Positions 46,061 to 64,000 of a stretch of DNA of 64,000 nt are shown one piece after another (position 1 is the stretch's first letter; every line of letters begins with the position of its first letter). Position numbers and translations under genes: made by a program. A model generated the notes under the pieces. The model searched no databases. It saw nothing but the letters and a program-made list of their open reading frames with translations, and was not told the DNA's origin. Location of the stretch: the IMG/VR virus record IMGVR_UViG_3300045988_177198; one strand, 5' to 3'. This DNA comes from a virus.

Positions 46061-46297
46061 GTCTGTTTCCTTGATTTTATAATAATTATAATAAGTATAA
46101 TACTTTAAAAAAGCATGTACCAAGAGGTTAAGTTCGATAATGGGCGAGCTTTGTCGAGAGTAGAGGTTGACGACCTAAACGGAAGTGGTTTAAAATAGAT
46201 TCTTGTTTGAGATAAGGTCACTTTTCTAAAAGGCATTGAGGGACGGTTCCCGTTTCGGTTTCCGTTCCTCTTTTTTGTGTTGTTTTCATACTTGAGG

Positions 46298-46318
46298 TAT
46301 ACTGGAATTGTTCACACA
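46298..46318 (+). promoter_or_regulatory. conserved promoter/leader element copy 1 (TATACTGGAATTGTTCACACA)
   Basis: -10-like TATACT plus conserved downstream 15-mer, 30 nt before RBS of 46348 gene. Confidence 0.55.
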
Positions 46319-46347
46319 GGAAAAGTCGAAAAACCAAGGAGCAAAAA

Positions 46348-47172
46348 ATGAGCAACATCGACAGCATCATCGAACGCATCAACAACCTCATGGCAATAGC
46401 CGAAAACGAAGCATCCAGCGACAATGAGGCGCAAATGGCGTTCGAGCGGGCACAGAAACTCATTAACGAATATCGTATCGAAGACTGGAAACGCGACCGC
46501 ACCCGCACGAACAAGCCAATCATCGAACGTGGCGTGAACGTAAGCAAAACCACCATCTACCATCAGCAAGGCTACCTTGCGACCATCATCGCCCAAGCTA
46601 ACGAATGCCGCGCCTACCTTCACGAAAGCCGGTGTGGCGGAAGGATTGAGGAACGTGCCGTCATGTTCGTAGGCGAGGAGGACGATGTGAACGCCGCAGT
46701 CCTTCTCTTCCAAAGCATCGACCTATACTGCTCAGTCCACGCCCGTACTAGCTACGCGGACATGATTGACAAGCACGCCAAAGCGTACTATGAGGACAAC
46801 AAGGAATACGTCGAAACGCATTACGGACGTGAATCCTATCCGACGCTGACGGAATGCAAACAGTACATGCGTCGTGATTATCCACGCGCCAAGTTCTACT
46901 ATGGTTATCGCGGTGGATTCAACGAACGTTTGAGCGAACGTTTCGAGGAGCTTCGCAAGCAGAGTCTCGCCATTCCTTCCGGTCGTGAGCTGGTGTCATG
47001 TAAGAGTCAGCGTCTGAACGAGTATTTTGACAAGCTTGAGCTGGTGTCGGGTCATGCGGCCACTGCTCGTGGTAGCAAGGATGGTTTTGCCCGTGGTGTG
47101 AGTGACGCGAACAATGTGGGTTTGGGTTTGTCTGAAATGGGTGTTTCGTCCCACGCTTTGCTGAATGCCTGA
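46348..47172 (+). CDS. hypothetical protein (first gene of conserved-promoter array)
   Basis: 274 aa; conserved promoter element 50 nt upstream; AAGGAG RBS. Confidence 0.55.
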   Translation: MSNIDSIIERINNLMAIAENEASSDNEAQMAFERAQKLINEYRIEDWKRDRTRTNKPIIERGVNVSKTTIYHQQGYLATIIAQANECRAYLHESRCGGRIEERAVMFVGEEDDVNAAVLLFQSIDLYCSVHARTSYADMIDKHAKAYYEDNKEYVETHYGRESYPTLTECKQYMRRDYPRAKFYYGYRGGFNERLSERFEELRKQSLAIPSGRELVSCKSQRLNEYFDKLELVSGHAATARGSKDGFARGVSDANNVGLGLSEMGVSSHALLNA

Positions 47173-47234
47173 CTTTTCAGCCCGCTTCCTTGCTTTGGGG
47201 AGTGGGCTGTTTTTGTTTTTCACAACAAACATGG

Positions 47235-47255
47235 TATACTGGGATTGTTCACACA
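47235..47255 (+). promoter_or_regulatory. conserved element copy 2 (TATACTGGGATTGTTCACACA)
   Basis: Upstream of 47287 gene; preceded by terminator hairpin 47178-47220. Confidence 0.55.
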
Positions 47256-47286
47256 AAAAATAGATTCCAACAAGGAGGAACAAAAA

Positions 47287-47781
47287 ATGATTAACACAAT
47301 CGTCAACCTCAAAATCACCAAACTACGCGAACTCTCCACCTTGTCAGTGGATAGGGAATATCTCACAATAGACTACTTGGACGAGGATGGCGAAGAACAG
47401 CGAATCGAAAAACTCGCCCACGAGGAAGACCTTGGCGAATACAATGTCAAGACCGACCTTTGGGCGGACATTCTCGAAGATTGGCGGCTCACCAAGCCGA
47501 TTCCAGTACCCTCTGCCGAAAAGGAGGACTGGAAACTGCTGGAAGACTATCTTTGGAACCTCTCCGACTCGCGATATCAGGAACTTTTGGACAATCGCAA
47601 CAAATTATACGAAGCCGACGACGTGGCGAACATCCTCCGCAATATCAGCCGTCTCAGCGACGTAGGACGAGCCACGTTGAACGAACTGCTGGACAATGGT
47701 CCCAAGGATGTGGAGGACAAGTATGAGGAACAGTGGAACCGTATCGTTCCGCTCCGTCAGGCGGACAGTGACGAAGAATAG
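47287..47781 (+). CDS. hypothetical acidic protein
   Basis: Start at Met 15 of track ORF (AAGGAGG RBS). Confidence 0.5.
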   Translation: MINTIVNLKITKLRELSTLSVDREYLTIDYLDEDGEEQRIEKLAHEEDLGEYNVKTDLWADILEDWRLTKPIPVPSAEKEDWKLLEDYLWNLSDSRYQELLDNRNKLYEADDVANILRNISRLSDVGRATLNELLDNGPKDVEDKYEEQWNRIVPLRQADSDEE

Positions 47782-47793
47782 GAAGTGAGAAAA

Positions 47794-48171
47794 ATGAAGG
47801 CACGAGACGTTAGCTTCTTCAAGAAAAACGCTTGGAAGGGCACGTATTCCAGCATCCTCACCATTCCGGTTGAAGCGTTGGCCGACAAGTGTTTCAACAC
47901 TTGGCTGGACATAGAGGACACGAATTTTGCGGAAGCCTCCCTACCGGACGAGAAGCTTGCCGGACGGTTCCGTGAGCTGGTCGATTCCGACGCCGAACAG
48001 GCGGAATGGGATGAATTCTATGCTTCCGTTGGCAAGGCTTTTTCCGCCATGTCGGTGGATGAACTGGCGTCCAAGTTCGTGGAGTTGAACGACCCTGCGA
48101 CCATCCGTCGTGTTCTTTGGGGTTACGGGGACAAATGGTATCTCGATTCCGATTGCGAGCATGAGTTCTGA
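47794..48171 (+). CDS. hypothetical protein, paralogue of 48639..49028
   Basis: ~45% identity to 48639..49028 product. Confidence 0.5.
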   Translation: MKARDVSFFKKNAWKGTYSSILTIPVEALADKCFNTWLDIEDTNFAEASLPDEKLAGRFRELVDSDAEQAEWDEFYASVGKAFSAMSVDELASKFVELNDPATIRRVLWGYGDKWYLDSDCEHEF

Positions 48172-48245
48172 CCGTCGGGTTTTAGCGCCTCTCCCTTGGG
48201 TGGGTGGGGCGCTTTTTGTTTGGCGTGTCGTGCCCCAACATGATG

Positions 48246-48266
48246 TATACTGGAATTGTTCACACA
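48246..48266 (+). promoter_or_regulatory. conserved element copy 3
   Basis: Upstream of 48306; preceded by hairpin plus CTTTTTGTTT. Confidence 0.55.
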
Positions 48267-48305
48267 AACAAGGGTTCGTAAAACCCATCACCAAAAGGAG
48301 AAAAA

Positions 48306-48506
48306 ATGCATATCAAGGACGTTCTGCTCATGACGCTTGTCACCATCGCTTTCGGTGGGACGGCAACCGCAGTCGCGTTCGGCATCTACTCGTTCGGCAC
48401 TTGGCTGTTCACGTTTGGCCGCACGTTCGGTATCGTATCCGTGTGCGCCATTACGGTGGTGTTGCTGACCGTCGCGGTTGAGGTTCGTTTGAGTATAAAT
48501 CGTTAG
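48306..48506 (+). CDS. small two-TM membrane protein
   Basis: 66 aa; own conserved promoter element. Confidence 0.45.
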   Translation: MHIKDVLLMTLVTIAFGGTATAVAFGIYSFGTWLFTFGRTFGIVSVCAITVVLLTVAVEVRLSINR

Positions 48507-48585
48507 TTTTGGTTTGTGGCCCCGTCGTTTTGGCGGGGCTTTTTGTTTTTTGGCGTGTCCGTGTTGCCTGTTTTACAAAGTGCGC

Positions 48586-48606
48586 TATACTGGAATCGTT
48601 CACACA
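48586..48606 (+). promoter_or_regulatory. conserved element copy 4 (TATACTGGAATCGTTCACACA)
   Basis: Upstream of 48639; preceded by terminator 48519-48551. Confidence 0.55.
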
Positions 48607-48638
48607 AAAACAGAAAGCCATTGAATAGGAGTTAGACC

Positions 48639-49028
48639 ATGGAACACAAGACCAAGGCCGTAGAAGTCAGTTTTCTAAAGAAAACCAAGTGGACGGGCAC
48701 CGCCACGAGAATGTTGACCTTCCCGGTCGTCGAACTGGCTGACAGGTGCCTGAACGCATGGCTCGACATCACGGATGAAGGATTCTCCCATGCCATACTC
48801 CCATCCGCGCAACTGGCGGAACGGTTCTCCACGCTCATGGAATCAGACGCCGACCAAGCCGTTTGGGACGAATTCTATAAAGCCGTGGGCGAGGAGTTTT
48901 CCCGCTTGTCAGTGGACGAGCTTGCCGCGTTTTTCATCGACCTGAACGACCCTTCGACCATAGAGGCCGTGCTGTGGAGCGACGGCGAACACGAGTTTTT
49001 GGATTCCGGTTGCGAATACCGGTATTAA
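48639..49028 (+). CDS. hypothetical protein, paralogue of 47794..48171
   Basis: 129 aa; own conserved promoter element. Confidence 0.55.
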   Translation: MEHKTKAVEVSFLKKTKWTGTATRMLTFPVVELADRCLNAWLDITDEGFSHAILPSAQLAERFSTLMESDADQAVWDEFYKAVGEEFSRLSVDELAAFFIDLNDPSTIEAVLWSDGEHEFLDSGCEYRY

Positions 49029-49046
49029 CGAAAAGGATACACGACG

Positions 49047-49226
49047 ATGAGAACCAAAGCCAAGGAACTGCCAGCCATCCTCACTATAGCTGACACGATG
49101 GCCTACCTCTCCTGCTCACGACAGCACGTGTACGACCTGCTGAAGGCCGGTCGCATACGCACCTACAAAATCGGACGACGCCGATACATCGACGCCGATT
49201 CGCTCGCCCACCTGTTCTGGAGGTAA
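49047..49226 (+). CDS. excisionase/AlpA-type helix-turn-helix DNA-binding protein
   Basis: 59 aa 'LTIADTMAYLSCSRQHVYDLLKAGRIRTYKIGRRRYI' matches HTH_17/Xis pattern; AAAGGA RBS. Confidence 0.5.
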   Translation: MRTKAKELPAILTIADTMAYLSCSRQHVYDLLKAGRIRTYKIGRRRYIDADSLAHLFWR

Positions 49227-49230
49227 CGCG

Positions 49231-49389
49231 ATGCCGAACGTGAACCGTGTGGTCATGTTGCCCGCCGACCTGTACCGGCAGACCATGCAATACGCCGACG
49301 ATAACGAACTCACGTGGAACGCGGCGGTGAGAGCACTGGTCGAACGGGGGCTGAGGCAAACCGTCGAACCATGTGGGGAGCTGTCGTGA
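49231..49389 (+). CDS. possible ribbon-helix-helix small protein
   Basis: 52 aa, beta-alpha-alpha-like pattern. Confidence 0.3.
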   Translation: MPNVNRVVMLPADLYRQTMQYADDNELTWNAAVRALVERGLRQTVEPCGELS

Positions 49390-49709
49390 CCGGGGACAGG
49401 CTACCCGCGTTCTTTCTCAAGGGCGTGTGGCAGGGGTTGAAAATAGCCCTCATACCGCACGCCCGTCTGCGTGACCCGTTGGGTCCCATGCCGACCGTGC
49501 GCGATTGGCTCGACATGTACGGAGGCACCCGCATGGACGCGGACATGTTCGACCGTTGCGAGAGCGAATGGTACGCACTGCTGGAGCAACGGAAACGTCG
49601 GATGAGCGCGTTCCTCGCGGGCGGATACGCGGGCACGTGGATGTATGCGATTGGGGTGCTCGTACTGTTGGGGTTGGTCGGCTGGTGGATTTGGCAGCTG
49701 ATTCCCTGA
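49371..49709 (+). CDS. hypothetical membrane protein
   Basis: C-terminal TM helix; start ATG 49371 or GTG 49386. Confidence 0.4.
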   Translation: MWGAVVTGDRLPAFFLKGVWQGLKIALIPHARLRDPLGPMPTVRDWLDMYGGTRMDADMFDRCESEWYALLEQRKRRMSAFLAGGYAGTWMYAIGVLVLLGLVGWWIWQLIP

Positions 49710-49788
49710 GATTCTAAACCCGTCGGATTCGACGGGTTTAGCTTTTTGCGGCTGTGCAGTGAGGGATTTTTGCATTATCCCTCTGTGG

Positions 49789-49809
49789 CATACTGGAATC
49801 GTCCACACA
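49789..49809 (+). promoter_or_regulatory. conserved element copy 5 (CATACTGGAATCGTCCACACA)
   Basis: Upstream of 49871. Confidence 0.5.
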
Positions 49810-49870
49810 AAAACCATTTAAAAAGGAGAACAACCTGTATATAGAACACGCCTACCAGCAGACACAGCAG

Positions 49871-50305
49871 GTGTGGCCGGTCGAATACGAAGACCAGCTC
49901 ACACTCTTAACTTCGCTTGAGAGCGCCGAACAGTACACCCACGAACACGGGAGAACCATCCTCGACCCCATGCCCGTGCTCTCCGCACGCACCGTATGGC
50001 ACTGCGTCACACTGCGAATCACGGACGGCGAACACGGCGCAACATACTCGCTCGTGGGAAGCGACGAACCCGAGAGACTGAAGCCCATCACCACCAAAAG
50101 CCCTTCCGTCCGATACGTGGGCTTCTATTTCTATCCCGACCTTACGCTGGAGGTTGCCGCCGAGACCGAGGAACGCGCCTGTGAGATTGCCGAAAAGCTT
50201 GGTGCCGCTCTTGTGGAATGGTATGGGGAGAGAAAGTCGTGGGAGCGTACCCCGAAGGCTCTGAGGTCTTTCGTCAGGGCGCAGGGCTTGGTCTTCCGCT
50301 TCTAG
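49871..50305 (+). CDS. hypothetical protein
   Basis: 144 aa; GTG start per track; conserved promoter variant (CATACT) upstream. Confidence 0.45.
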   Translation: MWPVEYEDQLTLLTSLESAEQYTHEHGRTILDPMPVLSARTVWHCVTLRITDGEHGATYSLVGSDEPERLKPITTKSPSVRYVGFYFYPDLTLEVAAETEERACEIAEKLGAALVEWYGERKSWERTPKALRSFVRAQGLVFRF

Positions 50306-50357
50306 GCGCTGGTCGGCATTTTTTGTTTTTTCGTATTGTGATATTTCAGACCATGTG

Positions 50358-50378
50358 TTATAGTGGTCATGTCCACAC
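50358..50378 (+). promoter_or_regulatory. conserved element copy 6 (TATAGTGGTCATGTCCACACA)
   Basis: Upstream of 50417; preceded by CATTTTTTGTTTTTT. Confidence 0.5.
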
Positions 50379-50416
50379 AAAAAGGGTTCGGCCTCACAAC
50401 AACAAAAGGAGAAAAC

Positions 50417-50713
50417 ATGAACACCATCCAGCCAATCGCATTCGACAACGGCACCATCAGCATCGTCGCAAGCGACAACACCTACGACCACGCCTACGCA
50501 GACAGGTCCATGACCGAAGCTATCGTGGAAACCTCCCACCACAAGCCCAATCCAATCAACTGGAAGCACGTCGTATCCAACTGCGACGAACGTTGGAACC
50601 TCATCAAAGGCAATGTGTGCTTGGCTGTCCTGAGCGGCAACTGGGACGTTTTCGAGAACCGCCTCGAAAACAGAATCATGCTCGTCACCCGCAAGGGAAC
50701 CCGAATCCTCTGA
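50417..50713 (+). CDS. hypothetical protein
   Basis: Start at Met 19 of track ORF (AAAAGGAG RBS). Confidence 0.45.
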   Translation: MNTIQPIAFDNGTISIVASDNTYDHAYADRSMTEAIVETSHHKPNPINWKHVVSNCDERWNLIKGNVCLAVLSGNWDVFENRLENRIMLVTRKGTRIL

Positions 50714-50798
50714 CCTATGCTAAAAGCCTCGGGGAGAAGCGTCATCCAGACCGCTTCTCCCCTCTCTCATATCCGACAAAAAAGAAAGGAAGCCTTGT

Positions 50799-51521
50799 AT
50801 GAAAGAACGGGATGTCTCGCTGGAAAACGACCTCATGATGTTAGGTCAGGAACCGATGGACGAACCCGACTCGTCCACCACCATCGAACTTCAAAGAGTG
50901 GTCAAAGAGACGGAACGGAAAATGTTGAAACCACCGGCACCGCCCATGGAAGCTGAAAAGAAGAACGTTCCTAAGCCCGTCGAATCGAAGAACGACCCTA
51001 CAGTCAAGACGGAACCTAAAGCAAAGACCGAAACCGTGTCCACGAAAGAACCGAAGACCTACAAGCCGACCATCTCACGCAAACAGTCAAAACCCGTCAA
51101 ATCCGCGACGACCCTCACCAATCCCTATGCTCCCGTCGAGTACGATTGCAACGGCAATTGGCGTCAACTCGTGGCCGGAATCGCCATCATCGGCGTTCTC
51201 GTGTCGGTAATCGCCCTACTGGTAGGGGCCAAAACATATTGGCGGTTCATCACCGTAGGAGTATTAGCCGCTTTCGCCATGCTCCCACTTTATGGTTGGT
51301 TTGATGAACTCGAACGGGATATGGCCATCAAAGCCGTGGAAAAGGATTACAGGATTCGTATTCTGCAAGCGAACGGTGGCGGCGGACTGGTGGAAGTTTA
51401 TTACACGTTCCAGCAGAATCCGACCGTCAAAGCTGGTGTTGTTTCCTATGGTCACGGCTTGGCATGGTTGCGGAACGCGGACGGTAAGAAGATTGTCGGA
51501 CGCGGCAGACCGTTGGACTGA
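50799..51521 (+). CDS. hypothetical membrane protein
   Basis: 240 aa; Lys/Pro/Thr-rich N-region, two TM helices. Confidence 0.5.
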   Translation: MKERDVSLENDLMMLGQEPMDEPDSSTTIELQRVVKETERKMLKPPAPPMEAEKKNVPKPVESKNDPTVKTEPKAKTETVSTKEPKTYKPTISRKQSKPVKSATTLTNPYAPVEYDCNGNWRQLVAGIAIIGVLVSVIALLVGAKTYWRFITVGVLAAFAMLPLYGWFDELERDMAIKAVEKDYRIRILQANGGGGLVEVYYTFQQNPTVKAGVVSYGHGLAWLRNADGKKIVGRGRPLD

Positions 51522-51526
51522 TTGAG

Positions 51527-51547: not shown

Positions 51548-51571
51548 CTACTACGGTAAGGAGCATTCGAC

Positions 51572-52394: not shown

Positions 52395-52415
52395 TATACT
52401 GGGATTGTTCACACA
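52395..52415 (+). promoter_or_regulatory. conserved element copy 7
   Basis: TATACTGGGATTGTTCACACA upstream of 52444. Confidence 0.55.
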
Positions 52416-52443
52416 AAAACTTGGTCTACAAAAGGAGCAACCC

Positions 52444-52832: not shown

Positions 52833-53027
52833 ATGAGTGAAACTATCGAAGACGCCAAGACCGAACCCCGTCCGATTTGGACGAAGCTAAAGGACGGTTG
52901 GAAAGTCCGAATCCCGAAAGAGTGGTGGGACAATTGGAGCGAGGCTGGTGAAACCGACGAGTTCCCGGTATTCAAAGCCAACGGCGAGGTGTCTCACGTG
53001 AACATCTTGACTTCCTCACGGGATTGA
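52833..53027 (+). CDS. hypothetical small protein
   Basis: 64 aa; AAAGGA RBS. Confidence 0.4.
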   Translation: MSETIEDAKTEPRPIWTKLKDGWKVRIPKEWWDNWSEAGETDEFPVFKANGEVSHVNILTSSRD

Positions 53028-53029
53028 AA

Positions 53030-54640
53030 TCCCGTGATTCCTGTTGCCGGTCGGACGTGTCTTTCTTAATGTTTTTTAATGGAAGAGATTCCGACCGGTA
53101 TTGCAGGGGTTTGAGTTTCATCGACGTTGCTTCCCATCGGTTTTCACCAGTGTGGAAGCTTGTTGTCTCCACTCGTAGGCATCGTCCGTGCCTTCCGGTT
53201 CTAAAGCGCGGTTGAGAATGTTCTTGGCCGCGTTCACGTCGGCGTTCGCCTCATGTCCGCAATTGTGGCAGTGGAACTCCGCTTGGCTTTCACGGTTGTT
53301 CTTGTCGCAGTATCCGCAGACGTTGCAAATGCGTGACGTGTCATAGGCGGGTACCTGAACGAGTCGGGTTCCCGCAAGCTTGGCTTTGTATTCGAGACAA
53401 TGCAGGAGGTCAGTCCAACGGTTGGCGAGGATGCTACGGTTCAAACCGCTTTTCCTCTTCCGCCCATTGGGGAGATAATGTCCCGGATTGTCGGGGTCTG
53501 GTTTCGGTCGGACGCTTCGGCTCATGGCTTTCACGTTCAACCGTTCCATGGCGATGAAATCGTATTCCCGGACGAGCATGGTGGTCGTTTTGGCTATCCA
53601 ATCGTCCTTGCGATTGTCTATCCGACGTTGGATGCTCCGCATGGCTTGGAGAGTACGCTTGCGGCTTTTGGACGCGAATTTGGCGTTCCTGCCGCCACGT
53701 TTCTCGTTCGTCCTGTCCTGTCGGGCGAGCTTGCGTTGCAGACGCTTATACTCGTCCACTTCCTTCGCCGACGGTTGCAGCATGTCGAGGAACAGTCCAT
53801 CCGACGTGGCGAGGGTATGCACGCAACCCCTATCCAAACCGACCATCATACCGGTATCGGTTCGGATGATAGGGAGTGGACTATTGGTAAACACGAGTGT
53901 CCTGTTCGTCCAGTTCACCGCCACACTTGTATATTCACGAATGGGTTGGCTCACCCGCACGTGAATGGCGATACGCCAACGAGCCTCGTTCTCACCCTCA
54001 CGACGATACTGTCTCGGCACACTGCCCGTGATGACGACCACACCGGCACGCTTGCCCGTCCGATAATACAAGGCGTTACCGGTCTTCGACTGGTTACGCC
54101 AGCACACGAAATACTGAGGAGCCTTATGACGGGAACGGAAACCCGGAACCCGGCCACCACTGGTCTTCTTTCGTTTCAATCCGGCGAACCATCCCGTATT
54201 CTCGACACGTTCGCACGAGGAGAGGATAGGCGAGGGGATGCACGCCAGCCAAAGACAATCCAATCGTGCCTGACTGTCCTTGACTGCGGGCTTCACATCC
54301 GCGCCGCCCAAAGGCACGTCCACCCAAATACGCTCACGGGTTTCGACATCCTCCACGAGCCTACGCTGGGGACGATGCGCCCTATGCTGGTTGTACCGGC
54401 TTCTCCACCCGTCGCACAACCAGTCCATGATACGTTCCGGACTACGAGTCCACATACGATTCCCGTAAGAGTCCAAGCCGAGGAACACACTGCACCCCGC
54501 ATGCCGGACTTTCAGGATTCGTACTTTTTGGCTCATACCAATATGATACCATATACCTTGAGTAATCAACAAAAAACACGCATAGCGTGCAAACCCGGCA
54601 TTAAAATACCGGGCTTATACGCAACAAAACCGTCAAGGTC
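53030..54640 (-). mobile_element. IS200/IS605-family (IS1341-like) insertion sequence carrying only tnpB
   Basis: tnpB plus right-end hairpin ccggtcgga...tccgaccgg (~53045-53098); ends approximate; no tnpA present. Confidence 0.45.
53118..54536 (-). CDS. tnpB: TnpB (OrfB) RNA-guided nuclease/transposase accessory protein
   Basis: RuvC-like motifs, C-terminal zinc finger 'CNVCGYC...CHNCGHEANADVNAAKNIL'; start at Met 13 (MSQKVRIL). Confidence 0.85.
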   Translation of the reverse strand: MSQKVRILKVRHAGCSVFLGLDSYGNRMWTRSPERIMDWLCDGWRSRYNQHRAHRPQRRLVEDVETRERIWVDVPLGGADVKPAVKDSQARLDCLWLACIPSPILSSCERVENTGWFAGLKRKKTSGGRVPGFRSRHKAPQYFVCWRNQSKTGNALYYRTGKRAGVVVITGSVPRQYRREGENEARWRIAIHVRVSQPIREYTSVAVNWTNRTLVFTNSPLPIIRTDTGMMVGLDRGCVHTLATSDGLFLDMLQPSAKEVDEYKRLQRKLARQDRTNEKRGGRNAKFASKSRKRTLQAMRSIQRRIDNRKDDWIAKTTTMLVREYDFIAMERLNVKAMSRSVRPKPDPDNPGHYLPNGRKRKSGLNRSILANRWTDLLHCLEYKAKLAGTRLVQVPAYDTSRICNVCGYCDKNNRESQAEFHCHNCGHEANADVNAAKNILNRALEPEGTDDAYEWRQQASTLVKTDGKQRR

Positions 54641-54950
54641 AGCAAGCCGTTCGTGTTGGACGGTGTGGAATACGTCATAGGCACGCCAAGGAAGGAAACC
54701 TACCGTCGTGGGTCTGCCCTCTCCCGCACTCCCAATACCGCTCGTAAGCGCAGTGGCATTCGTTGTGAGGAGTGCGGCTCCACCAAGGGCGTGCATCTGA
54801 CAAGGGATATTAACGGCATCGGTTGCCTGTTATGCTCTCTTTGCGATGATGGTTCCGCGAGCGTCTGCTGATTGGGTTTGCGGGGATTATTGGCTTGTTG
54901 CTGTAGTTCCCGCTTTTTTGTTTTTTAGCGTGTTTTGTCCAAGCAAATTG

Positions 54951-54971
54951 TATACTGGAATTGTTCACACA
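54951..54971 (+). promoter_or_regulatory. conserved element copy 8
   Basis: TATACTGGAATTGTTCACACA upstream of 54998; preceded by CGCTTTTTTGTTTTTT. Confidence 0.55.
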
Positions 54972-54997
54972 AAAATATGGAAGCCAAGGAGCAAAAA

Positions 54998-56226: not shown

Positions 56227-56320
56227 CTAATAGTGGGAAAAATTTCCGAGTCATGTGAATGCTTTTTGTATTTGCACGGCTTTTTGTTTTTTGCGCTTTT
56301 GCGCTTTCTCTTAAATATGA

Positions 56321-56341
56321 TATACTGGAATTGTTCACACA
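56321..56341 (+). promoter_or_regulatory. conserved element copy 9
   Basis: TATACTGGAATTGTTCACACA upstream of 56366. Confidence 0.55.
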
Positions 56342-56365
56342 AGATATACCAGAAAAGGAGAAACC

Positions 56366-57331: not shown

Positions 57332-57412
57332 GGTTTGATGGAGGGGAGGCGGGATGCTGTTTTGGTGTCCTGCTTTTGTTTTTTGGGGTTTTGCGGTTTC
57401 TCTCAAGTGTGC

Positions 57413-57433
57413 TATAGTGGAATTGTTCACACA
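57413..57433 (+). promoter_or_regulatory. conserved element copy 10 (TATAGTGGAATTGTTCACACA)
   Basis: Upstream of 57464. Confidence 0.55.
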
Positions 57434-57463
57434 AAGAGCGATAGGCAAAAAGGAGCACATAAC

Positions 57464-58532: not shown

Positions 58533-58545
58533 AAGTAGAAAAAAA

Positions 58546-58710
58546 ATGAGCAACCACGACTGGATTAACACCGGCAATGCCAACAAGAACAACACTCACA
58601 GGGAAAACCGTTCCACTCACATCGAATGGGATGCAGGTAGCGCTTGGAATCCGCAAGCCAAGAAACGAAACGAATATGGCAGACGCAACACCGACTTGTG
58701 CGACGAATAA
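58546..58710 (+). CDS. hypothetical small basic protein
   Basis: 54 aa. Confidence 0.3.
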   Translation: MSNHDWINTGNANKNNTHRENRSTHIEWDAGSAWNPQAKKRNEYGRRNTDLCDE

Positions 58711-58803
58711 AAGTCGGTAAAAAAGTCTATTATTGAGCGCGATTGCGCTGGTGTTTCAGACAAAGTTCTGAAGCCTCGCGAAATCGAATAATAAGCTAAG
58801 AAT

Positions 58804-58842
58804 GCCTGTGGAAAATCGTTGCCCACAGGCTTTTTCTTTTCA
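58804..58842 (+). terminator. rho-independent terminator
   Basis: gcctgtgg-aaaatcgttg-cccacaggc followed by TTTTTCTTTT. Confidence 0.5.
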
Positions 58843-58861
58843 ATTTTTGGAAGGAGCACGA

Positions 58862-59077
58862 ATGCCCCACTATCTTTTGGATGCAGCCAATAATGCGACG
58901 GAACTTCCCTTCGCAGACTTAGACTCCGTCCAGTCGATTCTGAACACCATGCCTACTCTGGCTCCGGAAGCACCCGTATTGGCTTGCGAAATTTTGGACG
59001 CGTGGGCAGAGGATTGCAGGATTCTGCGCCGCCGTCCGAAACTGGTGTTGTTGAATGTTGAGGAGCCGGAATTCTAA
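58862..59077 (+). CDS. hypothetical small protein
   Basis: 71 aa; GGAAGGAG RBS. Confidence 0.4.
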   Translation: MPHYLLDAANNATELPFADLDSVQSILNTMPTLAPEAPVLACEILDAWAEDCRILRRRPKLVLLNVEEPEF

Positions 59078-59122
59078 GTGTGGGAAGGTGGTTTTTCGTT
59101 CTTTGCATTACCCCTGTTGTGT

Positions 59123-59143
59123 TAGAGTGAGATAGCCCACACC
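59123..59143 (+). promoter_or_regulatory. degenerate element copy 11 (TAGAGTGAGATAGCCCACACC)
   Basis: Upstream of 59159. Confidence 0.4.
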
Positions 59144-59158
59144 AAAAAAGGAAAACCA

Positions 59159-59404
59159 ATGGCCTTAAAAGAACTTCCCTATCAAGACGGAATCAACTGG
59201 AAAGAATTCGAAGGCAAGTCCGCGATATTCAAATGGAACGGCAAACCCATGGCCGGAACCCTCTACTTGGACGGTTTCAGCAATCTCGCAGTTCGTGAAC
59301 TGTCCGGTTACATGCCGGTCTTATATATTTGGCCGGATGATACGAGTCATGTCAACGTCGAGCGTGTGACGGATTTTCATGTGTTCGAGTTCGTTGAGGA
59401 TTAG
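59159..59404 (+). CDS. hypothetical small protein
   Basis: 81 aa. Confidence 0.45.
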   Translation: MALKELPYQDGINWKEFEGKSAIFKWNGKPMAGTLYLDGFSNLAVRELSGYMPVLYIWPDDTSHVNVERVTDFHVFEFVED

Positions 59405-59834
59405 TGTAGTTCGGGACGCTGGCACTGCGGCTTCTATTCCCATTCCGGGGACAATCCGAACGTATTATCCCGGCTTCGATATTTGGTTCGACCGCACGGT
59501 TCTCCCCTCATTGGGGGAAGACCGTGTGATTCTTTTAGCCTATATAGACGGTGAGTTGGCGGGGTTTTGCGTTCTCAAGAGAAATCCGTCTGAACGGAAG
59601 ATTTGCACTTTGTATGTCTACGAGGGTTTTCGGAGTCGAGGGGTTGGTTCCACGCTGGTCGAATATGCATTGAAATCGCTGGATGAACGGTTCCCTCTGG
59701 TGACAGTGCCGGAAGAGTTGTTGCCGATGTATGAGGGTTTCTTCCGTCGTTTTGATTTTCGTCTGTCCGTCTCTCGTGTGGGTTTGTATCGGGTTGGGAA
59801 GAGGGAGTTCTTTTTTAACGGGACGCTGGCTTAG
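59379..59834 (+). CDS. GNAT-family N-acetyltransferase
   Basis: Acetyl-CoA binding motif 'RSRGVGSTLVEYAL' and flanking GNAT pattern; start uncertain. Confidence 0.6.
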   Translation: MCSSSLRISVVRDAGTAASIPIPGTIRTYYPGFDIWFDRTVLPSLGEDRVILLAYIDGELAGFCVLKRNPSERKICTLYVYEGFRSRGVGSTLVEYALKSLDERFPLVTVPEELLPMYEGFFRRFDFRLSVSRVGLYRVGKREFFFNGTLA

Positions 59835-59867
59835 GTTTGCGTGTTGCGTTTTTCTACCCCCTTGTGT

Positions 59868-59888
59868 TATAGTGGGATTGTTCACAAC
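59868..59888 (+). promoter_or_regulatory. conserved element copy 12 (TATAGTGGGATTGTTCACAAC)
   Basis: Upstream of 59923. Confidence 0.5.
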
Positions 59889-59922
59889 AAAAACAAAGAC
59901 AAAACCCAAAAAGGAGGACGCA

Positions 59923-60294
59923 TTGAATCAAGCAACTAAATTCGGCAAACGAATCCTCTTCGATGACCACCCAACTCGCGCGGTATTCGACACCAAGGAA
60001 CTGCCAACATATGACTCCTATGCGCTCTACCGCGTATGCCTTCGTTCTTGGCAACGGCATTCCTGCCGACCGGGAACCGAGGATACTCCCATGTTCGACG
60101 TGATATGCCCGGCAAGATGGTGCCGTTGGATTGCTCACGTCAGCATTCTGAACTATTTGGACGGCATAAGCTGGTTGGCTTGGCCGGTGGAAGGTGGTGT
60201 CAGTTGGCGGCATAGGACAATCGACCCTTATTCCGTCCACTATTCCGCCGATACCCATATTCCGGTAATCGACTTGCGCGAAAGCGAAGAATAG
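59923..60294 (+). CDS. hypothetical protein (Trp/Cys-rich)
   Basis: TTG start 5 nt after AGGAGG; promoter element upstream. Confidence 0.4.
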   Translation: MNQATKFGKRILFDDHPTRAVFDTKELPTYDSYALYRVCLRSWQRHSCRPGTEDTPMFDVICPARWCRWIAHVSILNYLDGISWLAWPVEGGVSWRHRTIDPYSVHYSADTHIPVIDLRESEE

Positions 60295-60302
60295 GAGAGA
60301 AC

Positions 60303-60698
60303 ATGTCCGACAATCAGAACACGCCTCGATTCTCGACCATAGGCGTCACCTACACGAAGCATCAGAACAATGCGGCGCTTAGCATGAGTTCCGCCGAAGA
60401 TTCGACCATGCGCCGACTGGGGTTCACCGACCACCGTGAGGGGTATTGGTACCTCTGCCGTTCAGTCTCCCCCGACCATGACATGACATTGAATGTCGAG
60501 ATTGCCAAGGACGGTAGCGACTGGCAGATTGACGTGTTGGACGAGAACTTCTGCCAACCCTACGACTACCAGTATTTACTCAACGTGAACCCGACGTTGG
60601 ATTATCCCAACAAGGTGGCTGACGAATGCGAGAAATGGTTCCGGAAACTATCCGAATGGGGTTTGCTACACGGCTGGCATGAGGGAATGTACGTCTGA
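60303..60698 (+). CDS. hypothetical protein
   Basis: 131 aa. Confidence 0.45.
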   Translation: MSDNQNTPRFSTIGVTYTKHQNNAALSMSSAEDSTMRRLGFTDHREGYWYLCRSVSPDHDMTLNVEIAKDGSDWQIDVLDENFCQPYDYQYLLNVNPTLDYPNKVADECEKWFRKLSEWGLLHGWHEGMYV

Positions 60699-60723
60699 AA
60701 AAACAGAAAGGAAAAACAAAAAA

Positions 60724-60993
60724 ATGAGCATTCTCAACGAAGAACTGGAAGAACGGTATCCCATCGAGGAAGGAGACTTCATCACGCTCACACGGGAGCA
60801 GTTGGCGTTGCAGTTGCGTCGCGCATACAAGGCGGGTGCGACCCGCGACTATAAGCGCACTCCGCACGGGCATACGGAACTGTTGAAGATTATCGGAACC
60901 CTCCAAGACTCCCACCTATTGCCTGACGGCACGGACTTCGAGGATGTCGTGAGAACGGTTCTGGACGGGCGTGTCAAGGCCATCACCAAATAG
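60724..60993 (+). CDS. hypothetical small protein
   Basis: 89 aa. Confidence 0.4.
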   Translation: MSILNEELEERYPIEEGDFITLTREQLALQLRRAYKAGATRDYKRTPHGHTELLKIIGTLQDSHLLPDGTDFEDVVRTVLDGRVKAITK

Positions 60994-60997
60994 GCGT

Positions 60998-61018
60998 TAT
61001 ACTAGAAACGTCCACACA
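60998..61018 (+). promoter_or_regulatory. conserved element copy 13 (TATACTAGAAACGTCCACACA)
   Basis: Upstream of exonuclease gene 61044. Confidence 0.5.
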
Positions 61019-61043
61019 TTCAATTACCCGAGGAGACCACACC

Positions 61044-61628
61044 ATGAGCTGGGACAAATACCAAAGTCGAGACCCCAGAAGAATCGACCCAATGAAAACA
61101 CCACTCTACGATTACGTGGTCTTGGATACCGAAACCACCGGTTTCAAACCTGAAAACGGGGCTAAACTCATTGAAATCGGAGCCGTGAAAATCCATGACG
61201 GAAAACTCGTAGACCGATACGAGCAACTGATTGACCCACACCAGCCAATCCCCGAATACATCACCTCGCTCACCGGAATCAACGACAGTATGGTCGTCGG
61301 ACAACCCGACGTAAGCCAAGCCATCATCCGATTCGACAAGTGGATTGGCCCGCGAACCATCATCATGGCGCATAACGCGTCATTCGATTTGAGTTTCTTG
61401 GACGCGGCCATGAAAACCGTGAACGGTGGAATGTTCTTCTTCCCGCACCGGTTCGTGGACACGTTGGAAATGAGTCGGAAAATCCATCCCGAAAAGCCGA
61501 GCCATAAGGTTGCCGTGCTTATCCGCGACTATGGTATCGGTGACGTGGAGGAGCATCGTGCCTTGTCTGACGCGACTCAGGAGAACATGCTGTATGAGGC
61601 TATGCGTAGAGAGGAGTTTGGACGCTGA
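61044..61628 (+). CDS. DnaQ-like (DEDDh) 3'-5' exonuclease
   Basis: Exo I 'VLDTETTG', Exo II 'HNASFDLSFL', Exo III 'HRALSDA'. Confidence 0.8.
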   Translation: MSWDKYQSRDPRRIDPMKTPLYDYVVLDTETTGFKPENGAKLIEIGAVKIHDGKLVDRYEQLIDPHQPIPEYITSLTGINDSMVVGQPDVSQAIIRFDKWIGPRTIIMAHNASFDLSFLDAAMKTVNGGMFFFPHRFVDTLEMSRKIHPEKPSHKVAVLIRDYGIGDVEEHRALSDATQENMLYEAMRREEFGR

Positions 61629-61883
61629 ATGGGGTATGAGGACATGTTCAATCCCGAATGCAGGGACTATCTGAAATCACGCAAGCCGTCGCAACGGGAG
61701 CGGGAGATAGCGAAGCTTGAGAAACAAGCCGACAACAAGCACGACATGTATGGCGACAAAAGCTATGCGGTTTCTGGCGAGGTTGCGGCTATCTACGAAA
61801 ATCAGCAAGCGTTGCGACTGCGGTTGGAAAGCATCGAAGAAAAACTGGACAAACTGCTGGAAACCAGAGAGGAACAGTCGTGA
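61629..61883 (+). CDS. hypothetical coiled-coil small protein
   Basis: 84 aa. Confidence 0.4.
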   Translation: MGYEDMFNPECRDYLKSRKPSQREREIAKLEKQADNKHDMYGDKSYAVSGEVAAIYENQQALRLRLESIEEKLDKLLETREEQS

Positions 61884-62449
61884 AGAATCTGCTCACCTGC
61901 CCATGTTGCAGTGGAACCCCGAAATTCAGATATCAGGCCAAAAACGAAATGTGCGGAATGTGGGACGGGTACCTACTCTACCGACCTAAAGGCTGGGAAT
62001 ACTCCCACCTATGTCTGGATGAACACGGATTGCAAACGACTGGAGGAAACGGATTCGCAACACTGCACGAGGCAGAACGCGACTGGCAATACAAGGTAGG
62101 AAGCTTCCTGCGGAACCCGATGAACAGTTTCCACCCGTTCATCGAAACCGGCGCTGAACTAGTGACCAAATTGGATGATTATCTCGTCGGAGAACGATTG
62201 CATCTTGGCGACAAGGTAACATTGAGTCGGCGTTCCATGACCGTTCGTGGCGTTGTGCAGTTCATCCAACGGACTTCCGTCGGGGAAATCAGTATCATTC
62301 TCCGTGACACGGATACCATCAAGTTCGTGATTTACACTCCGGTCAGGGAGCGCCGAAAGTACATGTTCTCCTATCATGTCGAAAGGCGGCTTCATTGGAC
62401 AAAAAAGCCGAAAGGCTCCTCTGTGACGCGTACCATCGCGGGCGCTTAG
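61880..62449 (+). CDS. hypothetical protein with N-terminal CxCC zinc-ribbon-like motif
   Basis: 189 aa, 'CPCCSGTPKF'. Confidence 0.45.
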   Translation: MKNLLTCPCCSGTPKFRYQAKNEMCGMWDGYLLYRPKGWEYSHLCLDEHGLQTTGGNGFATLHEAERDWQYKVGSFLRNPMNSFHPFIETGAELVTKLDDYLVGERLHLGDKVTLSRRSMTVRGVVQFIQRTSVGEISIILRDTDTIKFVIYTPVRERRKYMFSYHVERRLHWTKKPKGSSVTRTIAGA

Positions 62450-62627
62450 CGGAGGTTGACGAAAATAATCTGGATGCGGCTGTGTCCCTTATCGATAGCA
62501 GGTATGCCGACTGTTGGTGTACCTTGTTGGGGCATGAAGCCATCAGAGCGACCGGCCATGGGTTTGGTGTCGCACGGAAGCTGGAGTTGGATTGCTGAGT
62601 TTTCAGCATTTTCCAAATCTTTATTGT

Positions 62628-62649
62628 TATACTGGAACAGTGGGCACAA
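62628..62649 (+). promoter_or_regulatory. conserved element copy 14 (TATACTGGAACAGTGGGCACAA) with leader hairpin
   Basis: Upstream of 62689 micro-ORF. Confidence 0.45.
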
Positions 62650-62688
62650 TACTGTGCTCGCTGTTTTTCTTTTTTAGAAGGAGTCGAA

Positions 62689-62790
62689 ATGGCCCAGCAT
62701 AGTAACAAAAGCCGCAAGAACAAGAAGGTCGTGGTCATCGAGAAGGTGCGGGACAAGTATGGTTCCGTTATCGCTTTGAAGAGGGGGTAG
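62689..62790 (+). CDS. 33-aa basic micro-ORF behind leader hairpin
   Basis: GAAGGAG RBS; preceded by promoter element and a gcaca-atac-tgtgc hairpin plus T-run. Confidence 0.25.
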   Translation: MAQHSNKSRKNKKVVVIEKVRDKYGSVIALKRG

Positions 62791-62814
62791 TTGTCCTCTT
62801 TGAGAGGTTTATGT

Positions 62815-62835
62815 TATACTGGGGGTGTTCACATA
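62815..62835 (+). promoter_or_regulatory. conserved element copy 15 (TATACTGGGGGTGTTCACATA)
   Basis: Upstream of 62863. Confidence 0.5.
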
Positions 62836-62862
62836 AAAACCATTCCAAAAAAGGAGAACACC

Positions 62863-63195
62863 ATGAAAAACATCGACCCATACGAACTCAGGCACGCTAC
62901 CTACAACGACAATCGCGTGAAAGACCAGAAAATCCTCTCCACCCTATGCCCAGAAGACACGCTCCTCCTTCAGCTAGGCGACAAGAAGGGCAAGACCGTA
63001 GGAATCGTCATCATCAACATTCCGGACGACCACCCCGACACTGCTCTTTATACGCTCTACCTTTCGCTGGAAGACATGGAATACAACGACGAATACTCAC
63101 ACGGCCACTACGACTTCTCCGAAGACGACGACTACGAAAAAGGCGCTCGAAGCCTCGTAACCGACTGCATGAACGACCTCGAACTGGAACAGTAA
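62863..63195 (+). CDS. hypothetical acidic protein
   Basis: Start at Met 25 of track ORF (AAAAGGAG RBS). Confidence 0.45.
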   Translation: MKNIDPYELRHATYNDNRVKDQKILSTLCPEDTLLLQLGDKKGKTVGIVIINIPDDHPDTALYTLYLSLEDMEYNDEYSHGHYDFSEDDDYEKGARSLVTDCMNDLELEQ

Positions 63196-63210
63196 GAGAG
63201 GACGGACATC

Positions 63211-63837
63211 ATGCACAGCTTATACAAGACCGCAGGTAAATGCACTCTGAACCGAAGCAAAGTCCGCTACCCCAACAAAAGGGAAGCCCAACTCGCATTG
63301 GCCGTCATCAAAGGACGAGGAAACCCGAAACACACTGAGAAACGCGCATACCATTGCCCCATATGCCACGGATGGCATCTGACCAGCGCCGAAACCGTTA
63401 ATGATACAGTCCTTTCCGGGAGCGTGCTCCAACACACCAATCCAGACGCGTTCGACACAGGAATGAAAGCGTTCCTCTCTGGTTCCAAACGCGGCAAATA
63501 TTCCGCAAGCAAAGCCAGCCTGACCCGACGTGTCCGACATTTGCTCCACTTGTTCGCGGCCAACGATATTCCGAATGACTCTTGGGACAATCCATGGTTG
63601 TGGGCAACTCTTAGATTCCAAATCATGTGGAGGGGCGGAGACCAGAAGGCCGAACAGCTTCTATCCACTTCGAAAAAAACGGTCAAAATGGCGGGCGACA
63701 TGCTCACCGAAGACAAGGAGCCGTTCCTTCGCGTGGCTGAAACCCGGAAGGAAGCACAAAAATTACAGAATACACCACTACCGGCATGGTTGGCCGTCGC
63801 ACTGATGGCCGACAAGGGAAAGGAGCAGAAAGTTTGA
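63211..63837 (+). CDS. hypothetical protein with CxxC...CxxC motif
   Basis: 208 aa, 'HCPICHGWH'. Confidence 0.45.
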   Translation: MHSLYKTAGKCTLNRSKVRYPNKREAQLALAVIKGRGNPKHTEKRAYHCPICHGWHLTSAETVNDTVLSGSVLQHTNPDAFDTGMKAFLSGSKRGKYSASKASLTRRVRHLLHLFAANDIPNDSWDNPWLWATLRFQIMWRGGDQKAEQLLSTSKKTVKMAGDMLTEDKEPFLRVAETRKEAQKLQNTPLPAWLAVALMADKGKEQKV

Positions 63838-64000
63838 ACGAAAACGAACTGAAAGAAAGGGCCGTCCACTCATTGCTCCAATCGAAGCTTGGTAAAGTCG
63901 CTCCGGCGGAAGCGTTTGTCATCGGATGGCGGAAAGGCTGGGACGAGGCTATCGACATGGCTTTGGAAATCGTTCGCAATGAACTCGATAAAGATGGCGA
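63834..64000 (+). CDS. hypothetical protein (3' truncated by window end)
   Basis: Open frame continuing past the window. Confidence 0.3.
   Translation, partial: MNENELKERAVHSLLQSKLGKVAPAEAFVIGWRKGWDEAIDMALEIVRNELDKDG

Follow-up and report, generated by a model that had tools for sequence, protein, structure and literature searches.

A 64,000-nucleotide stretch of DNA catalogued as viral (IMG/VR record IMGVR_UViG_3300045988_177198; the whole stretch is referred to here as the window) carries on its plus strand, between 46.3 and 63.8 kb, an array of 14-15 repeats of the element TGnTATACT-G-N5-GTYCACAYAAA, and about five more copies lie elsewhere in the window. This element is probably the Bifidobacterium adolescentis-megaplasmid version of the plasmid-specific promoter module of pMP7017, a megaplasmid of Bifidobacterium breve for which a promoter motif of this kind is already published (PMC10832533, Microb Biotechnol 2024). 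What is new is the conservation of the motif in a distant and very prevalent lineage, a sharper invariant core and register, the dense array in which the copies stand, and a link between the module and the shuffling of gene cassettes.

Copies of the element and their position before genes

Matches to the 21-mer TATACTGGAATTGTTCACACA at ≤3 mismatches numbered 10, against 0.00 expected from dinucleotide shuffles, and position-weight and looser scans recovered 14 plus-strand array copies, from 46298 to 62815, together with a degenerate copy at 62628; the total for the 64-kb window is about 20. The first-pass annotation of this DNA had claimed at least 15 copies, and 14-15 were counted by the position-weight scan. 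All array copies share their orientation with a downstream AGGAG-type ribosome binding site (RBS) and start codon, with ~40-57 nt between the element and the start codon of the next gene; over 276 copies on related contigs, TATACT lies a median of 50 nt before the start codon, with an interquartile range (IQR) of 46-57 nt. The element had first been described from the region between 46 and 64 kb. It was also found at 2866 (-), 2397 (-), 25550 (-), 25624 (+) and 29958 (+), as well as past the window end in related contigs, and it is not a regional motif, since it heads the dnaB operon of the window and occurs in at least 24 copies across 190 kb of pMP7017. A search of 185,579 species, with one representative genome each, gave a single match, in an unrelated metagenome-assembled genome, where about 4 matches are expected by chance according to our own arithmetic, and on this chance-level result a chromosomal repeat was rejected. 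Nor does the element have the character of a chromosome-wide repeat of the REP/BIME type: it is not palindromic, it is found on plasmids only, and its copies are co-oriented about 50 nt before start codons.

The -10 hexamer and the downstream block form one rigid unit

A logo of 272 unique copies from related contigs showed a -35 TTG (T at -23, 0.76; T at -22, 0.66; G at -21), 17-nt spacing, an extended -10 TGn (TG at -3/-2) and then TATACT, with an information content of ~2 bits from position 0 to +22 and ~0 outside, the values inside being inflated by the way in which the copies were collected. These features bear out the earlier proposal that the element is a promoter with a TATACT -10. In order to remove the collection bias, the copies were re-anchored on the downstream block alone. 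The downstream block of the pMP7017 type, GTCCACATAAAA, occurs here at fixed spacing, as GTYCACAYAAA 6 nt after the hexamer: when GTYCACAYA served as the anchor, a TAnAnT hexamer was located exactly 6 nt upstream in 253 of 281 unique contexts and 7 nt upstream in one, and the remaining contexts were mostly degenerate -10 variants in the same register. Among 293 block-anchored hexamers, TATACT accounted for 76%, TATAGT for 9% and TATATT for 7.5%, while TATAAT, which is the mapped bifidobacterial -10 consensus (PMC5746004), occurred in none (0/293). The base following the hexamer is nearly always G and the next five bases are variable. Hexamer and block are thus held together as a single rigid unit.

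Because the usual distance from the -10 to the start is 6-8 nt, the transcription start is predicted at the G/T of GTYCACA. The leaders behind it contain 45% A and are unstructured, with a mean minimum free energy of -4.0 kcal/mol, whereas 50-mers drawn at random from these loci average -9.5 kcal/mol. A search of Rfam at gathering thresholds found no family anywhere in the window, and a known RNA family or structured leader was rejected, given this result and the fact that the leaders are less structured than random sequence. The first-pass annotation had further suggested a shared operator or leader element. The ~17 nt after the -10 are selected and common to many unrelated genes, and such a shared regulatory or leader element is accordingly a fair reading; no reader of the block was found.

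The promoter function is well supported: each copy is a host sigma-A-type promoter (weak -35 TTG, 17-nt spacer, TGn, TATACT) joined in an invariant register to a G, a discriminator of 5 variable nt and the 11-nt block GTYCACAYAAA. Judged by its spacing, the block would begin at the predicted start and make up the initial ~11 nt of each transcript; behind it come an A-rich leader without structure and a strong AAGGAG RBS.

Relation to the published pMP7017 motif

The published motif of pMP7017 is 34 bp long (AWAYATGY-TATACT-GAATATGTCCACATAAAAWA) and overlaps the -10; it was first recognized on six highly expressed genes and then on 13 more promoters, 19 in total, and by prediction 56 genes, 24% of the coding capacity, are under their control (PMC10832533). 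The paper also states that the motif is not on bifidobacterial chromosomes and that its genes are highly transcribed in exponentially growing, established carriers; the authors view it as 'likely a transcription factor binding site', with no factor named. Our own scan of pMP7017 yielded at least 24 copies over 190 kb, which head ssb, the dnaB operon, a tRNA array, cas genes, an RNA-ligase operon and genes for DUF4192, DUF2786 and an exonuclease, and the -10 was TATACT in 14 of 23 copies.

The window and pMP7017 have in common the architecture and register TGy-TATACT-G-N5-GTCCACAYAAAA, which aligns without gaps and with 13 of 18 bases identical after the -10. On both plasmids many copies lie within ~60 nt of the start codons of unrelated genes, the motif is restricted to plasmids, and the backbone is syntenic. 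The consensus states differ between the two families (GGAATT-GTTCACACA versus GAATAT-GTCCACATA), yet each is also a minority variant in the other family, and GTCCACA and CACATA are likewise minority variants in one family that are the majority states of the other; within the window, the GTCCACA variant is found at 49789, 50359, 60998 and 25550. The region from the block to the RBS is variable in the window family, whereas the pMP7017 copies share the whole cassette through the RBS, and the window copies are, unlike those of pMP7017, packed into a dense array punctuated by terminators. The host differs as well, being B. adolescentis here and B. breve in the case of pMP7017, and the RepA proteins are just 37% identical. 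The pattern of homology breakpoints at the motif, which is described below, is not mentioned in the available passages of the pMP7017 paper (PMC10832533).

At least seven orthologous promoter-gene pairs keep the motif, although their proteins are only 21-56% identical, and the motif is therefore constrained far more than the genes that it serves. The module of the DUF2786 gene lies at window 46298 and at pMP7017 28290 (-). The HEAT-like genes behind window 54951 and 56321 correspond to pMP7017 motif 79185 with the orthologue at 79231, and the exonuclease gene behind window 60998 corresponds to motif 81979 with the orthologue at 82026 (56% identity). On the minus strand, 2443-2814 (-) with its motif at 2866 (-) is paired with the pMP7017 orthologue 34788-35150 and motif 35196 (-), and 2028-2360 (-) with its motif at 2397 (-) is paired with the orthologue 35792-36070 and motif 36118 (-). 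In addition, the divergent pair at window 25550 (-) and 25624 (+, dnaB operon) has its counterpart at pMP7017 56070 (-) and 56120 (+).

Cassettes of the array and their terminators

The terminator tail CTTTTTGTTTTTT gave 24 matches at ≤2 mismatches in comparison to 2.5 expected, which supports the conserved tail after a hairpin that had been noticed at the outset, and hairpins of -15 to -25 kcal/mol with a TTTTTGTTTTTT tail precede 9-10 of the 15 array copies. The further claim that every gene is a terminator-promoter-gene unit of its own was too strong, as ~34 plus-strand ORFs (open reading frames) share 14-15 promoters in units that hold 1-7 genes, and the upstream terminator is weak or missing at five or six copies (52395, 59123, 59868, 60998, 62628, 62815). 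The cassette logic is well supported: the ~20 copies in the window head short cassettes of 1-7 genes, most of which are closed by an intrinsic terminator with its T-tail within the UP/-35 zone of the next promoter. Each cassette would therefore receive the same transcriptional input and mRNA 5′ end as all others, independent of its neighbours.

The first array module (TATACTGGAATTGTTCACACAGGAA, 46298..46322, on the plus strand like all array modules and terminators that follow; position-weight score 40.0, the highest shuffle score being 7.0) is ahead of the DUF2786/DUF7168 gene 46348-47172. An intrinsic terminator with a 13-bp stem and a TTTTTGTTTTT tail (47178..47221; -24.6 kcal/mol), the tail of which overlaps the UP/-35 zone of the following promoter, comes before the module at 47235..47259 (score 47.7), which is ahead of 47287-47781 and 47794-48171. 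A terminator hairpin plus TTTTTGTTTGG at approximately 48184..48224 (-25.2 kcal/mol) precedes the module at 48246..48270, which is ahead of a protein with two transmembrane segments (48306-48506), and a terminator with CTTTTTGTTTTTT (48518..48551) precedes the module at 48586..48610, ahead of 48639-49028, the HTH_17 gene 49047-49226, a weak ribbon-helix-helix (RHH) match at 49231-49389 and a transmembrane peptide at 49533-49709. The next terminator, with a 12-bp stem (49714..49751), stands before a CATACT and GTCCACACA variant of the module (49789..49813), which is ahead of an ORF that apparently runs from CTG 49835 to 50305. In this ORF region (49823-50305) the RBS is a good AAGGAG, but CTG 49835 is the sole suitably spaced codon in frame, which points to a rare start codon or else to a gene in decay.

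Further along the array, a module with TATAGT...GTCCACACAAAAA (50359..50383) is ahead of 50417-50713, 50799-51521, the zinc-ribbon gene 51572-51982 and small ORFs, and the module at 52395..52419 is ahead of 52444-52821 and 52833-53027. The array is then interrupted by an IS605-family TnpB insertion on the minus strand (53002..54637; ORF 53118-54572, Cas12f1-like_TNB and OrfB_IS605), the DNA of which is 88% identical to a B. longum megaplasmid copy (NZ_CP143940.1). The segment at 53.1-54.6 kb had been included in the array; as an insertion sequence carrying an opposite-strand TnpB gene, it lies outside the regulon. No omega-RNA family of Rfam was matched. A second TnpB is located just past the window end (8849-9733 in contig L116).

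Downstream of the insertion, a terminator hairpin plus TTTTTTGTTTTTT at approximately 54880..54926 (-18.9 kcal/mol) precedes the module at 54951..54975, ahead of the HEAT-repeat paralogue 54998-55918; a terminator hairpin plus CTTTTTGTTTTTT at approximately 56249..56292 precedes the module at 56321..56345, ahead of the winged-helix-like plus HEAT/ARM protein 56366-57331; and a terminator with a 15-pair stem and GTTTTTT (57345..57384) precedes a TATAGT module (57413..57437), ahead of 57464-57721 and later genes to ~59077. A weak or degenerate copy (TAGAGTGAGATAGCCCACACCAAAA, 59123..59147), which scored 9.3 as compared with the shuffle maximum of 7.0, is ahead of 59159-59404 and the GNAT gene 59379-59834, and the module at 59868..59892 (score 34) is ahead of 59923-60294, 60303-60698 and 60724-60993. 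The module at 60998..61022, again a GTCCACACA variant, is ahead of the DEDDh/RNase_T exonuclease gene 61044-61628 and of 61629-61883 and 61880-62449, and the last one (GTTCACATAAAAA, 62815..62839; score 36) is ahead of 62863-63195 and 63211-63837. Between these two lies the degenerate copy TATACTGGAACAGTGGGCACA (62628..62675), with a 15-pair hairpin and T-run (62634-62667) directly after it, followed by a strong RBS and a very basic 33-aa ORF (MAQHSNKSRKNKK..., 62689-62790); this 62628-62790 arrangement resembles an attenuator or a hairpin that stabilises the 5′ end.

Outside the array, TATACTAGAAGTGTTCACACAATAA at 2842..2866 (-) is ahead of 2443-2814 (-), and a weak copy, TATAGTGGAACCAGTCACAAACAAG, at 2373..2397 (-), with a score of 10.7 against the shuffle maximum of 7.0, is ahead of 2028-2360 (-). 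The copy at 25526..25550 (-) is ahead of a minus-strand operon that extends from ~25480 down to 24118, and a degenerate divergent copy read by eye, TAAGCTGACCTCGCCCACACAAAAC at 25624..25648 (+), is ahead of 25681-25905, 26453-28216 and dnaB (28605-29945), in that order. A weak copy with a score of 8.1 (CATAGTGGGTACGCCCACAAAAAAG, 29958..29982, +) is ahead of the Band_7/SPFH gene 29996-31393.

Homology breakpoints at the module

The flanks of 296 unique copies fall into 68 types on the upstream side and 61 on the downstream side, which are combined in 102 ways. Breakpoints were determined with one representative per flank-type pair. Of 36 pairs with the same downstream gene, 17 lose homology at -6 to +6 and 11 at -29 to -39, the upstream edge of the promoter; of 16 pairs with the same upstream flank, 14 lose it at +17 to +23. 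In window coordinates, 15 of 69 distinct breakpoints fall within -40 to +30 of the motif start, as compared with 6% expected by length, and 10 are exactly at the motif edge; these counts describe a pattern, not a number of events. In one related contig (L141), window position 47174 is joined directly to 56317, skipping 9 kb of cassettes. Since breakpoints are clustered at the motif edges, the shared module is favoured for crossover, and the 25-bp module is a favoured crossover point, one among several. By this route cassettes would be gained, lost and exchanged between related plasmids at the module, and the breakpoint pattern suggests how these plasmids shuffle a large ORFan cargo.

What reads the +1 to +11 block

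The confidence expressed above in the module applies to its description only and does not extend to the reading of the block. For the latter, we tentatively prefer an action at the level of DNA and RNA polymerase (RNAP), in which the block would be part of a composite site read by RNAP alone or together with a plasmid-encoded factor that tunes all module promoters. Evidence for such a site is the single rigid register and the family-specific conservation of the untranscribed C of TATACT, the following G and TGn; because conservation includes untranscribed bases (TATACT, never TATAAT), a DNA-level reader is favoured. Several observations weigh against this interpretation. The +1 position was placed by -10 spacing alone. 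No trans-acting reader was found, and ten small conserved backbone proteins shared with pMP7017 are without a DNA-binding domain and were dropped as candidate readers. The block begins at the predicted start, after a variable discriminator, and a function at the RNA 5′ end would fit this equally well. At pMP7017 60373 (10373 of locus L113), between cistrons of the dnaB operon, a block GTCCACATAAAAA is present with an A-run and an RBS and without a -10 hexamer, and this copy hints at a role of the block that needs no promoter, in RNA or translation. With respect to crossover at the module, 78% of the array homology breakpoints are away from motif copies, and the breakpoints were counted on related, non-independent plasmids.

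The first-pass annotation envisaged one master switch for the whole array. This is unproven and partly contradicted, given that the pMP7017 paper reports the motif on highly transcribed genes in established carriers (PMC10832533). The default state of these promoters would therefore be on, and a modulating factor acting on them is possible.

A common 5′-terminal mRNA leader is somewhat doubtful, though it comes nearest to the composite site. Here GUYCACAYAAA at the 5′ end of ~20-40 plasmid mRNAs would enhance translation or act as a ribosome standby site, would determine stability, or would be bound by a plasmid-encoded RNA-binding protein, and the regulon would be post-transcriptional. The restart of conservation at the predicted +1 after the variable discriminator, the single-stranded leaders with 45% A and the promoter-less intercistronic copy on pMP7017 with its A-run and RBS would all agree with this, and a fixed -10 spacing is what a defined 5′ end needs. 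However, the spacing between the block and the RBS or start codon is not constant (IQR 46-57 nt, range ~30-65), which is unexpected for ribosome positioning, the untranscribed bases (C of TATACT, the following G, TGn) are conserved too, neither an Rfam family nor structure was detected, and promoter-less copies are very rare, ~1 in 250 in the window family.

A repressor operator with zygotic induction is rather unlikely. By this account the block or the whole 25 bp would be the operator, and the promoters would fire transiently in a repressor-free recipient and then be damped, as in the Gram-positive precedent of four promoters repressed by the RHH protein Reg576 (PMC6294495); the master switch envisaged at the outset would, for establishment genes, be of this kind. 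The reiterated cis element does overlap -10 to +11 on many promoters, and the module-driven 48586 unit contains HTH_17 (49047, E 2.7e-12) and a weak RHH (49231, E 0.015); the pMP7017 genes behind the motif include ssb, DUF4192, DUF2786 and exonuclease genes, as is typical of an early or establishment set, and the authors of the pMP7017 study also prefer a transcription-factor site (PMC10832533). On the other hand, in that study the motif was discovered on highly transcribed genes of exponential, established carriers, and the regulon takes in dnaB and tRNA genes, beyond establishment functions. The site, moreover, is asymmetric and has no heptad repeat or clear dyad, only TG.A....T.CA being shared by inspection; a strict single register is unusual for operators, and the HTH_17 and RHH genes have no detectable homologue on pMP7017, though the motif core is common to both plasmids.

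A more far-reaching idea, which we consider equally unlikely, is that the block would be a common 5′-terminal tag on ~20-40 megaplasmid mRNAs, read as RNA, or as DNA in the initiating complex, by a plasmid-encoded factor, and that the module would double as the site of crossover in an integron-like platform of cassettes, each with its own promoter and terminator. If this is true, the plasmid could adjust the expression of all its accessory cassettes independently of the genes of its host.

It is improbable that the element is a mobile promoter without further function, whose copies are alike by recent descent or gene conversion and not by selection on the block. Mosaic junctions do occur at the motif, and on pMP7017 the whole ~60-bp cassette including the RBS has been copied even before the tRNA array (120545). 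Neutral sequence would decay, however, and conversion tracts would not stop at one base each time, whereas the conservation edges are sharp over 272 copies and 61 unrelated gene types (~2 bits inside, ~0 outside) and the core is kept at orthologous positions between families with proteins 21-56% identical.

A promoter for an element-encoded polymerase or sigma factor, after the logic of the 23-bp T7-like promoters, or a single-strand leading-region promoter of the Frpo type is highly improbable, for although a conserved block of ~25 bp spans the start site, TATAAT is avoided and IMG/VR files the contigs as viral, sigma-A features are present (TTG -35 at 17 nt, TGn), no RNAP or sigma domain turned up when the large unknown ORFs were compared with Pfam, PHROGs and PDB sequences, and none is annotated on pMP7017, and there is neither a second conserved block to pair in single-stranded DNA nor a consistent hairpin over the motif in single-strand folds, so that both variants were dropped.

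Two further candidates were considered and dropped. The possibility that the motif is targeted by CRISPR guides was prompted by the type I-E Cascade of pMP7017, which is without an annotated cas3, and by a PAM-like (protospacer adjacent motif-like) ATG triplet before the motif; 0 of 25 spacers from the two arrays of pMP7017 match the motif (best local score 8 of 33). These type I-E arrays (locus L113; 67,688-68,338 and 72,564-73,520), with no cas3 annotated nearby, do contain self-targeting spacers, for 81718-81750 at 33/33 and for 4383-4411 at 28/29. The actinobacterial LexA box is TCGAAC-N4-GTTCGA and the CRP/GlxR box is TGTGA-N6-TCACA. Host regulator boxes (LexA, CRP/GlxR, NrdR) were discarded, as spacing and half-sites do not fit when the motif is compared with them by eye.

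Replicon identity and host

The window encodes RepA_C (6430-7299), ParA (7894-8790, minus strand) and a DnaB helicase, with two ParA-like ATPases in all, and a membrane/ATPase cluster that resembles a Gram-positive type IV secretion system (T4SS); proteins of 1318 and 886 aa are T4SS-like membrane or ATPase proteins. A sortase-dependent pilus operon at 31573-40711 contains a GramPos_pilinBB/SpaA pilin, a 1796-aa adhesin with RCC1 repeats and SdrD B-like domains, and a sortase homologue that was recognized only by tblastn similarity to the pMP7017 sortase; the operon parallels the pilus locus of pMP7017. With RepA, ParA, DnaB, the T4SS-like module and sortase pili, the earlier suggestion of a plasmid is supported. 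The alternative of a phage-like early region is an analogy only, since no capsid, terminase or RNAP was present among the proteins scanned, and a search for capsid and terminase families gave no match among these window proteins.

The exact RepA and DnaB of the window are B. adolescentis proteins at NCBI and recur on metagenomic contigs, which number in the hundreds and reach about 220-250 kb, the exact RepA being found on 619 contigs and the exact exonuclease on 952. RepA is 35-38% identical to the RepA of B. longum and B. breve megaplasmids, and synteny links window 1-30 kb to pMP7017 34-60 kb, with amino-acid identities of 35-68%. More than 100 motif-bearing stretches were found in IMG/VR on contigs of 100-217 kb, and these "viral" contigs (loci L002-L141) are probably a plasmid family filed as viral. 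Our literature searches found no paper on a B. adolescentis megaplasmid. The host plasmid belongs to a very common and apparently undescribed family of ~220-kb megaplasmids of B. adolescentis, a dominant adult gut commensal.

A relaxase or oriT was found neither in the window nor in the 8-10 kb beyond it, which hold an RNA ligase, an ATP-grasp protein, DUF3310 and the further TnpB mentioned above; MOB-suite likewise found no relaxase on pMP7017 and typed it as non-mobilizable. For want of such a landmark, the array is not assigned to the leading or establishment region that had been proposed at the outset, and in both families the motif is scattered across the entire replicon.

Genes related to defence are also present outside the array. 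An AAA ATPase at 22892-23791 (-) matches IetA of the IetAS anti-phage system (PADLOC, E 3e-59), and the adjoining 254-aa ORF at 21489-22253 (-), which gave no match in Pfam or PHROGs and on which PADLOC was not run, could be its partner protease. The region 41682-46123, which adjoins the array on its upstream side, is a possible defence module: it begins with a stand-alone RVT_1 reverse transcriptase, for which PADLOC gave matches of the DRT/UG type up to 1e-16 and Rfam gave no group II intron RNA, followed by the ORFans 43181-43792 and 43789-44796 and a convergent AAA_16/STAND-like ATPase (44903-46123). A nuclease of the GmrSD_C/DUF1524 type at 3121-4146 (-), 51% identical to a pMP7017 protein, adjoins module-driven small genes.

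Cargo of the array

The array cargo is mostly ORFan. Most of the functions read from the letters at the outset were confirmed, namely the DnaQ-like exonuclease (RNase_T/DEDDh at 61044, E 1.5e-33), the GNAT (59379-59834), the excisionase-type helix-turn-helix protein (HTH_17 at 49047, E 2.7e-12), the HEAT-repeat paralogues (HEAT/ARM proteins 54998 and 56366, 31% identical, model pLDDT 88.7), the zinc-ribbon proteins (51572 and 58158) and the small membrane proteins (48306, 49533, 52212 and 50799). The supposed RHH pair, in contrast, came down to a single weak match (49231, E 0.015). In the model of the HEAT-repeat protein the N-terminus has a winged-helix-like fold, and a fold search gave generic HEAT/ARM matches only. 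Two ORFans of neighbouring cassettes, 47794-48171 and 48639-49028, are clear paralogues with the common motif ...SF(F/L)KK..W.GT....LT.PV..LAD.C.N.WLDI.D..F....

No known anti-restriction family was matched by the window cargo, which gives the idea of an anti-defence island no support: Pfam scans of ~35 array proteins gave no match to ArdA, KlcA, Ocr or a methylase, and PADLOC with three array proteins returned generic DEDDh, PDC-S48 and PDC-M11A matches only. The array ORFans could be undescribed anti-defence genes. When the array DNA was compared with phage databases there was no match, and with plasmid databases the TnpB insertion alone was matched.

Discussion

That the pMP7017 motif is conserved in a lineage so distant, with its register kept and its promoters orthologous, turns what was a single-plasmid curiosity into a selected control element of a whole plasmid family. 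The rigid unit of -10 and block, the avoidance of TATAAT and the variable discriminator narrow the choice of bases to mutate, and the module is a ready-made insulated expression cassette for Bifidobacterium genetics.

Among other systems, the early promoters of large lytic phages such as T5 and T4 are strong sigma-70-type promoters that are conserved past the -10 into +1 to +20 and head many small ORFan genes. The downstream conservation is similar here, but the window belongs to a plasmid, for which no connection with host takeover is known, and the sequences are unrelated. The stoperators of cluster A mycobacteriophages, which are bound by L5 gp71, are short asymmetric sites present in tens of copies in one orientation, within and between genes and independent of promoters. 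Like these, the window element is asymmetric, multi-copy, co-oriented and carried by an actinobacterial mobile element, but its block is almost never found without a -10 at 6 nt. With leading regions of the Frpo type (PMC11541004) the window shares co-oriented small genes, some of an early flavour (ssb on pMP7017, exonuclease, DUF2786). It differs from them in that there is no single-stranded DNA hairpin promoter, oriT and relaxase were not located, the motif is dispersed plasmid-wide and the cargo has no known anti-defence match.

Global repressor networks of plasmids, such as those of RK2 (KorA/KorB) and R388, likewise use reiterated sites over core promoters. The Reg576 promoters of the Bacillus plasmid p576 (PMC6294495) resemble the window in being double-strand promoters of a conjugative plasmid with a reiterated cis element over the core promoter for control of a whole regulon, with candidate HTH and RHH genes lying within the regulon in the case of the window. 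The operators of these repressor systems are dyads or paired heptamers bound by dimers, whereas the window site is asymmetric and rigidly fused to the -10, and no repressor was found for it. Unlike promoters of the repressed Reg576 type, those of the window's relative pMP7017 are reported to be highly active at steady state.

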